A model generated the notes under the pieces. That model was not told where the DNA came from and did no database searches. It saw only the letters and a list, made by a program, of their open reading frames with translations. DNA of 64,000 nt. Source: Octopus vulgaris. Its lineage: Eukaryota. Each line of letters opens with the position of its first letter. Position 1 is the first letter of the stretch. Position numbers and translations under genes: made by a program. Shown here one piece after another: positions 10,614 to 34,251 of the stretch. The stretch covers positions 61,008,001 through 61,072,000 of the forward strand of contig OX597831.1 of assembly GCA_951406725.2 (NCBI GenBank), in the 5' to 3' direction.

Positions 10614-11731
<1,118 letters not shown>

Positions 11732-22404: not shown

Positions 22405-22821
22405 TTTATTTCTTTATTGCCCAAAGGGGGCTAAACATAGAGGGTACAAATAACGACAGTCAAAGGGATTAAGTCGATTAAATCGACCCCAGTGTGTAAT
22501 TGGTGCTTAATTTATCGACCCCGAAAGGATGAAAGGCAAAGTCGACCTCGGCGGAATTTCAACTCTGAACGTAACGGCAAACGAAATACCTATTTCTTTA
22601 CTACCCACAAGGGGCTAAACACGGAGGAGACAAACAAAGACAAACAAACGGATTAAGTCGATTATATCGACCCCAGTGTGTAACTGGTACTTAATTTATC
22701 AACCCCGAAAGGATGAAAGACAAGTCGACCTCGGCGGAATTTGAACTCAGAACGTAACGGCAGACGAAATACCGCTAAGTATTTAGCCCGGCATGCTAAC
22801 GATTCTGCTAGCTCATTGCCC
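22405..22821 (-). mobile_element. dimer of SINE family A
   Basis: Two body/tail units joined at gaaatac|ctatttcttta. Confidence 0.85.
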
Positions 22822-31523: not shown

Positions 31524-32002
31524 CATAAGTTGAAGACGGGAAGGATGACTTCCCTTCACAAATACTGATAGGGCACAGAAAGTGTGTATATAGCCAGCTG
31601 GATGAGGTGTCTTCCTGGGGCTACAAGCTACAGTAGCATCCACCCTTAGGGGTTAGCCATATTCAAATGACAAATATACGTATATATCTATATATGTATA
31701 TGTAAAAACATACAGGGACAAGAACGCAAAATATTTAGAAGACGATACAAAAAACAATGGCGGGACATTCGAAGCCTTCAATCTTCAGTCAAGAACGGGA
31801 TTATCCTCGCAATTTCGGCTGATTAATCTTGAGATTGCTCCGGTCTGGCCAGCCCCAAAGAAAAGTCTAAGCCAAGCGCATTAGATTCCTTGGAAGAAAG
31901 CCTCGAATGTATACAAAACAAGGACGGAAAAACGGACGATGTTACACGAATAAGAATACAAAAATACGTAAAAACAATAATGATAACACGAATAAGAATA
32001 GA
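31520..32002 (-). mobile_element. non-coding pLTR/retrozyme-like repeat in (TA)n carrying a permuted hammerhead motif
   Basis: T-rich minus strand with the same overall layout as 33640-34065; boundaries approximate. Confidence 0.55.
31773..31845 (-). ncRNA. putative pseudoknotted (non-circularly permuted) hammerhead ribozyme
   Basis: GCAAU-C-UCAAGA uuaauc AGCC-GAA-AUUGC (14 nt) UCUUGA-CUGAAGA-uugaa-GGCU. Confidence 0.6.
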
Positions 32003-33208: not shown

Positions 33209-33251
<43 letters not shown>

Positions 33252-33266
33252 TTGAGTGTCGATTTT

Positions 33267-33298
<32 letters not shown>

Positions 33299-33301
<3 letters not shown>

Positions 33302-34179
33302 GTATGTATGCATATATTTTATTTATTACACTATTGTATGATTGAGCGCCCTCGCGTCGATTCGATTCGTTCCGTTTCGTTTCCTCCTAGTAAATTTTTA
33401 TATATAATTATGGCATGAAACTATATAACTCTTTGCTTGACCTACCCTTCCTTCCCTATCTCCCTCTCTCTCACTCCTCCTCATCTCTCTCACAGCCGTT
33501 TGTCTTCGTATATCTCTCTCTCACTCCTCCTCATCTCTCTCACAACCGGGCGACTACTTCCTTTCGCCTGCGGCCTCCTAACAGTGATCAACGTTCCTCT
33601 TGCGCTCATAAAAATCTATCCTCATTGTTTGTTTTCTTGTTTGTTTTTATTTCTTCTACTGTATTTTTTGGTAATTATATTTTTATTTTGTATTTTATTT
33701 TGTAATTTTATTTGTATCGTTTTTACGTCCTGTATTTGTCACATTTTTTTCTTTCCTTGTTTTTACCCCTCTGCGAAGTAATTTTATTTAATTCTTTCGC
33801 AGGAAGGGCTAGTTCGACGAGTCGTGTTCTGTCTTCACCTTCGAAACACGCTGGAGTTGAACTAGGGACAGCTGATGAAGGGGAATTTTCCTCGTGTAGT
33901 TTGTCTTGTACTCTGTTTTTTCGTTGTTTAAAAAGGTCCGTTTCCATGTTTGTTTTTACGTTTTCGTTTCTCGTTGAGTTCTACGTCTAATTCTGGTGTC
34001 GTGTACTCACGTATATATATTTACATATGCATGTATATATACATGTAGATGTAGGTACGTACATATATGTATGTATGTATGCATATATTTTATTTATTAC
34101 ACTATTGTATGACTGAGCGCCCTCGCGTCGATTCGATTCGTTTTGTTTCGTTTCGTTTCGTTTCGTTTCCTCCTAGTAA

Positions 34180-34183
<4 letters not shown>
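33299..34183 (+). mobile_element. non-coding element with ~100-bp direct terminal redundancy (unit ~771 nt) inserted in (TA)n; pLTR/retrozyme-like
   Basis: 33299-33397 is repeated at 34070-34183; internal hairpins and a hammerhead-core motif. Confidence 0.7.
33809..33883 (+). ncRNA. putative pseudoknotted (non-circularly permuted) hammerhead ribozyme
   Basis: CGUGU-U-CUGUCUU cac CUUC-GAA-ACACG (14 nt) GGGACAG-CUGAUGA-A-GGGG. Confidence 0.65.

Positions 34184-34251
<68 letters not shown>

Follow-up and report, generated by a model that had tools for sequence, protein, structure and literature searches.

A candidate hammerhead ribozyme with a permuted, probably split core in non-autonomous Penelope-like retroelements of Octopus vulgaris

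We analysed a stretch of 64,000 nucleotides (nt) from the Octopus vulgaris genome, hereafter the window (assembly GCA_951406725.2, contig OX597831.1, positions 61,008,001–61,072,000), which carries a non-coding retroelement copy with a candidate hammerhead ribozyme on its minus strand. A first-pass annotation, made from the letters of the DNA, had read positions 31845–31773 as a hammerhead in permuted order, and the string was found there letter for letter, with stem III (GCAAU/AUUGC, five Watson-Crick pairs), stem I (UCAAGA/UCUUGA, six Watson-Crick pairs), the cleavage triplet AUC with C17 at 31833, the predicted cut between 31833 and 31832, and a linker of 14 nt from the G block to the C block. 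The blocks follow the order S-G-C, and both the stem II 3′ strand AGCC and a downstream GGCU are present. The claim that chance is an improbable source was also borne out: a relaxed descriptor gave 0.033 SGC matches per window across 60 dinucleotide shuffles, and a strict descriptor gave none in any block order across the 60; the real window contains two. A search against Rfam at the gathering threshold returned no match, and nested (single-strand) folding was uninformative (z = 0.19); both results are expected, because the motif contains multiple pseudoknots. A random 390-kb sample held three SGC motifs (one outside the family by eye), one CGS, and one GSC, too few for counts by family.

The element around the motif is 5′-truncated and partly decayed, and is 92–95% identical to fuller copies (blastn). 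In 30 compared copies of this lineage (lineage 1), the 3′ end was fixed in (TA)n or (CA)n, the 5′ truncation was variable, and the units were arranged head to tail, together with inverted 5′ pieces and with one ribozyme per unit; no flank was shared past the unit boundary. The longest ATG frame in the units had 118 codons, and there was no long open reading frame (ORF). A fixed 3′ end, truncation, and tandem or inverted pieces are structural marks of Penelope-like elements (PLEs; PMC8557442). Non-coding units in tandem, truncation at the 5′ end, pieces in inverted orientation, and a microsatellite target place the element among non-autonomous PLEs. A pattern of G block plus core occurs at 10,684 places in the 2.8-Gb genome, compared with three for a control pattern, giving at least that many copies of the element. 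In the youngest lineage 1 subfamily, which forms arrays of 2–4 units, 40 of 40 scored matches were 100% identical over 211 bp; therefore, lineage 1 has moved recently.

A second motif, near 33809, belongs to lineage 2, which comprises three families and shares with lineage 1 a single 43-bp blastn match as its sole similarity. The first-pass annotation had likened the two motifs; their plan is indeed the same, but the second lies on the plus strand and reaches a linker length of 14 nt only when 7 bp are assigned to stem I. Their differing stems had been called covariation between two repeat families, but with only that one match between the lineages they do not, strictly speaking, amount to covariation. 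Furthermore, 3′ ends resembling that of Naiad_Ovul, from the Naiad clade of PLEs, carry a like ribozyme plan at 16 places in the genome (control, 0).

Table 1. Predicted ribozyme parts and element copies in the window, with the loci of the youngest lineage 1 subfamily
Feature	Positions	Strand	Remark
Proposed true stem II 5′ strand GGCUGG	31849–31854	−	G10.1 at 31854; outside the interval annotated first
P0 helix 5′ strand (stem I-II joining helix)	31842–31848	−	Decayed in window copy, 3/7 pairs
GGA, non-bulged strand of k-turn-like loop	31839–31841	−	Alignment: A invariant, GG at least 90%
Stem III 3′ strand GCAAU + C17	31833–31838	−	Predicted cut between 31833 and 31832
Stem I 3′ strand UCAAGA	31827–31832	−	4/6 pairs covary
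Stem II 3′ strand UCAGCC	31817–31822	−	C11.1 at 31817
GAAA core + stem III 5′ strand AUUGC	31809–31816	−	Sequence and family alignment
3-nt bulge GAG + GAU, bulged strand of k-turn-like loop	31803–31808	−	Bulge variable, next A invariant
P0 helix 3′ strand	31796–31802	−	Sequence and family alignment
Stem I 5′ strand UCUUGA + core CUGAAGA	31782–31794	−	Sequence and family alignment
Post-core UUGAAGGCU (first-pass insert + stem II)	31773–31781	−	Variable
Lineage 1 retroelement copy, non-coding, 5′-truncated	31681–31998	−	Between TA-rich runs; unit about 700–860 nt
Lineage 2 ribozyme, like plan	33803–33878	+	Upstream GAAGG 33803–33807; predicted cut 33828/33829; core 33872–33878
Lineage 2 element	33212–34232	+	Slightly more than one unit + inverted piece
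Youngest lineage 1 subfamily loci	L182:5900–6950, L192–L201		Tandem arrays

Covariation was found inside each lineage. For lineage 1, 60 copies were taken from the first 100 pattern matches on one contig (C1); 19 were truncated or rearranged upstream, and two of the 43 that a script called intact were dropped as false, leaving 41 intact copies that were aligned with the window copy (36 distinct sequences). Ten pairs in this alignment showed two-sided change, a number reached in 0 of 500 shuffles, and pairing at the true register was 93%, compared with 13–48% in slid controls. The two-sided changes fell in stem I (four of six pairs), stem III (three of five), and a fourth helix, P0 (three of seven). 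Stem I occurs as UCAAGA/UCUUGA, UCGAGU/ACUCGA, and UCAGAA/UUCUGA, and stem III as GCAAU/AUUGC, GUAAU/AUUAC, and GCAGU/ACUGC. The slid control and these named changes weigh more than the shuffles, because kinship alone can beat shuffles without structure. The youngest subfamily retains every stem through compensatory change. In an alignment of 19 of the 79 collected lineage 2 copies, three of six stem I pairs and two of seven P0 pairs covaried; a point against the proposed fold is that the lineage 2 total of covarying pairs does not exceed that of shuffles (145 of 500 reach it). The core letters belonged to the search pattern itself, with N7 left free: N7 was A, U, G, or C across copies, and CUGANGA, GAAA, and UH were otherwise kept.

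What had been described as an imperfect pairing of the linker with the sequence upstream corresponds to P0, a covarying helix that is connected to stem III by a k-turn-like link. Stem III meets P0 at three variable bases and, after them, GA opposite GA, an arrangement that we take to resemble the k-turn consensus of a 3-nt bulge followed by tandem G.A/A.G pairs. The pattern is present in most lineage 1 and Naiad-type copies and departs in the youngest subfamily and in family 4, and it suggests that a k-turn-like loop links the two helices. The 16 Naiad-type remnants (L121–L152) show the pattern most clearly, with U.U as the third pair. In family 4 (L061–L090), the loop has AGUA opposite GAA, which resembles a bulged-G (loop E) motif more than a k-turn. 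The window copy itself may be inactive, given its decayed P0.

Stem II is the part of the first-pass hammerhead that did not stand, whereas the cut site, the conserved core, and the covarying stems I and III did, as did a second lineage of like plan. Stem II had been read as AGCC/GGCU behind a 5-nt insert, which is probably wrong. The strand preceding GAAA has a second complement, GGCUGG, directly 5′ of P0, and we infer that this upstream strand is the true partner. The closing pair G10.1-C11.1 forms with the upstream partner in 35 of the 36 distinct sequences, compared with 24 of 36 for the downstream GGCU; among the 41 intact copies, the discordant ones close upstream only in 12 cases and downstream only in three (p = 0.035). 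Whole subfamilies lack the downstream GGCU yet have the upstream GGCUG, one of them holding a five-unit tandem array, and public contigs include variants with an intact core but a broken downstream strand. The upstream complements differ between three groups whose sequences cannot be aligned with one another (GGCUG in lineage 1, GAAGG in lineage 2, and GACAC in the Naiad type), each lying 0–1 nt before P0; the duplex is GAAGG/CCUUC in lineage 2 (GAAGGC/GCCUUC in family 3) and GACACC/GGUGUC at Naiad-type ends. The probability of three chance 5-bp complements within 30 registers is near 3e−5. Duplex energy favours the upstream strand in six of six families (for example, −7.8 vs −4.2, −4.6 vs 0.0, and −8.1 vs +2.2 kcal/mol, upstream vs downstream), and in lineage 1, 25 of 26 copies would require a 5-nt insert for a downstream stem II to form. 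With the upstream strand as partner, A9 and G10.1 would be unjoined and the backbone open at that point, which would explain the insert. Because PLE hammerheads often have one extra base at the A9/G10.1 link (PMC4209133), this is a tolerant site, at which even a full break may be functional. The post-core segment (31773–31781) is likely an alternative or relic partner of the stem II strand. A competing GAUUGA/UUAAUC helix, also raised in the first-pass annotation, was rejected, as it is broken in subfamilies, including the youngest.

Several observations weigh against the upstream partner. The 12 upstream-only copies come from two or three subfamilies or so and cannot be counted as 12 separate events. 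Stem II showed no two-sided covariation inside lineage 1 with either partner, and its 3′ strand was fixed by the search pattern. Among the 10,684 genomic places, the downstream GGYT was counted 7,505 times and the upstream GGYT 6,357 times, an excess that we attribute to truncation (the upstream part is missing in 19 of the 60 sampled copies). In lineage 2, the downstream GGGG (two G-C and two G.U pairs, with a 1-nt insert) is kept in 18 of 18 copies. At 33879–33895 (+), the post-core GGGG of the lineage 2 copy can pair with the following UUUUCCUU as a hairpin of its own, so that its conservation may have a cause other than stem II. These counts bear on an alternative that we consider unlikely, in which an active type SGC forms stem II from AGCC/GGCU with a 5-nt insert bulging out (a single nt in lineage 2), while the upstream strand acts as a switch or inhibitor that keeps the ribozyme off. 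Such an arrangement would suit the downstream GGYT found in 70% of copies, the invariant GGGG of lineage 2, the Naiad_Smim end, which reads by eye as an intact-block SGC, and the 1-nt insert between positions 9 and 10.1 that is common in PLE hammerheads (PMC4209133). However, it does not account for the subfamilies that keep an intact core and covarying stems without the downstream strand, including the one with the five-unit array; the SGC inserts published at that point never exceed 1–2 nt in the accessible part of PMC10085705, and Naiad-type ends are without a stable downstream helix.

On the combined sequence evidence, the lineage very probably encodes an active hammerhead that cuts at the predicted site, and the whole model with an upstream stem II is, in our judgment, likely. 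The strand order would be the stem II 5′ strand, P0, the cut-site block, the GAAA block, the P0 partner, and the stem I strand with CUGANGA. The RNA would cut itself after AUC, with P0 tying the ends of stems I and II and the k-turn-like loop bending stem III back onto P0. Tandem units transcribed as multimers would then cut themselves into unit-length RNAs. A Penelope-like reverse transcriptase (RT)/endonuclease acting in trans would copy these RNAs at (TA)n targets and run off the cut 5′ end, giving copies that begin at or just after the cut. We regard it as very unlikely that the blocks instead pair between neighbouring units or molecules, as a dimer or domain swap that restores the canonical circular order without pseudoknots known from other PLE hammerheads. 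The units are tandem, a UUCGAA palindrome follows the core, and dimer action has been proposed for PLE hammerheads (PMC4209133), but every stem is complete (5–7 bp) inside one unit, the stem III loop is not palindromic, and SGC ribozymes cleave as monomers in vitro (PMC10085705).

An RT running off a 5′ end made by self-cutting would leave copies that begin at or just past the cut, and junctions were found to accumulate there. In subfamilies with a 6-bp stem III, the only ones that the spacer of the junction search picked up, 28 of 95 junctions coincided with the cut, 51 fell up to 10 nt past it, and 16 in the preceding 19 nt (p = 6e−12); these are all 98 matches minus two duplicate rows and one unrelated match, tallied by eye. 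A GAUC|UCAG subfamily, which is without the ATAT microhomology, has 13 copies beginning at the cut. In a broader lineage 1 search, the matches listed (100 of 7,176 rows, 26 loci) gave six junctions at the cut, 17 after it, and three before it, and in lineage 2 (100 of 128 rows, 98 loci) those listed gave 81 at or after the cut, mostly 6–7 nt after, and 17 before. Junctions per 30-nt window numbered 155 upstream, 352 downstream, and 974 at the cut site (one strand alone), although the anchors of these counts are unequal in stringency. Both this inequality and the position of most junctions, 2–11 nt past the cut, where AT microhomology helps, weigh against reading the pile-up as a mark of cleavage. 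Nevertheless, the pile-up is consistent with an indirect genomic trace of self-cleavage at the predicted cut. Least probable of all, we believe, is that the fold was active once or never and is an RT binding or stalling site, with the pile-up arising from stalling and AT microhomology: many junctions do lie at AT-rich spots past the cut and P0 is decayed in the window copy, but a subfamily lacking local microhomology peaks sharply, at one base, on the predicted scissile bond, N7 is the sole free core position, and all stems are compensated in the youngest subfamily.

Naiads have been reported to be without canonical hammerheads, with eight “HHR_half_core” cases flagged as not fitting (Craig 2021, PMC8557442). 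We parsed the last 300–600 nt of 32 of the 54 Naiad consensi (named by file order) by eye. The ends of Naiad-1_Nbra, 2_Nbra, 3_Nbra, Hpol, and Asuum (nematode) read as clean type CSG with differing complementary stems, a type whose published basis was two metagenomic sequences (PMC10085705). The split design fits the ends of Obim, Ovul, 3_Chem, and Bfor (the last with a stem I of only 2 bp), the Smim end fits an intact SGC, and Ptep and Esco have stems I and III in S-G-C order with stem II unclear. Twenty of the 32 ends showed nothing that could be parsed as a hammerhead by eye. Darwinula Naiad ends have CUGACGA cores that could not be parsed by eye (PMC8557442 supplement S5), and the bivalve ends viewed have no hammerhead core; their tails, GC-rich and structured, may represent a different class of ribozyme.

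The split form corresponds to CSG opened at A9/G10.1, with stem II and P0 separated by 0–1 nt in both. The split form could have arisen from CSG when a short stretch was duplicated in tandem and the outer parts were lost, leaving the downstream GGCU as a relic, which suggests a route between CSG and SGC through tandem duplication. We lean towards the view that, in several animal phyla, hammerheads of non-circular permutation serve Naiad-type Penelopes and the non-autonomous elements riding on them, and that octopus has an active seventh wiring with block C split at A9/G10.1 and a natural k-turn closing the cage. This would offer a reason why Naiads seemed to be ribozyme-less and, if true, would fill their “missing ribozyme” and give animal genomes their first ribozyme class of this kind. 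Weighing against the model as a whole, no intact partner element was found for lineages 1 and 2, and cephalopod Naiads are described as inactive remnants (Craig 2021, PMC8557442). As to the mover of the two lineages, the 16 Naiad-type ends are short remnants, and canonical type I PLE motifs occur in the genome. Within 5 kb upstream of the 16 Naiad-type ends, no RT frame was recognisable by eye, only short remnants; blastn found no similarity of lineages 1 and 2 to the Naiad-type end, and their units show neither a GIY-YIG + RT ORF nor sequence descent from a Naiad. The identity within the youngest subfamily implies a partner enzyme that is active now or was recently.

The S-G-C order itself has been described, from metatranscriptomes only, as the non-circular “type SGC”, with block C assumed to be uninterruptible (Eckert 2023, PMC10085705). 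The octopus motif shares with types SGC and CSG (HRIMA-1, PMC10085705) the non-circular order, the core, a short linker from S to G, and a joining helix between stems I and II. In contrast to the published type SGC, which that source places in metatranscriptomes and metagenomes and in the genome of no known organism, the octopus copies are genomic. Moreover, the joining-helix partner lies 3′ in the published form, whereas the strands proposed for stem II and P0 lie 5′ of the cut in octopus, and the k-turn-like link to stem III is a feature that the published types, as accessible, do not share. An unbroken block C (stem II 0–2 nt after CUGANGA) is not the pattern of lineage 1, and we therefore file the motif as a variant of type SGC, not as a member.

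Non-LTR retrozymes (bioRxiv 10.64898/2026.07.22.740005) are similar in their dispersed non-coding tandem units, one hammerhead per unit, and presumed mobilisation by PLEs, but carry type I (CGS) hammerheads; the accessible text of that preprint uses type I models only and contains no mention of octopus, cephalopod, or SGC. The Naiad clade (PMC8557442) shares the (TA)n target, 5′ truncation, and tandem or inverted pieces, and octopus Naiad ends share the ribozyme plan; however, Naiads carry an ORF, unlike lineages 1 and 2. The minimal type I PLE hammerheads (Cervera and de la Pena 2014, PMC4209133) share the PLE setting and a 9/10.1 position that tolerates an extra base, but differ in their canonical order, short palindromic stem III, and dependence on dimers. 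The octopus wiring is likely not yet described and outside the published six-order scheme; no prior report of it was found in the literature covered, which left aside most work behind subscription along with the PMC10085705 and preprint supplements, sources that could bear on novelty. A break at A9/G10.1 would contradict an assumption of the six-permutation scheme and would explain why standard descriptors miss the motif. Previously known from unassigned RNA contigs, non-circular hammerheads would number over ten thousand in this animal genome.

Two further repeats were observed. Type I PLE-like hammerheads with a short palindromic stem III, near position 508 of locus L039 (+) and near 3874 of L161 (+), sit in another repeat family with inverted 5′ pieces. 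Finally, the window itself contains, at 22407–22773, a 184-bp repeat in two head-to-tail copies.
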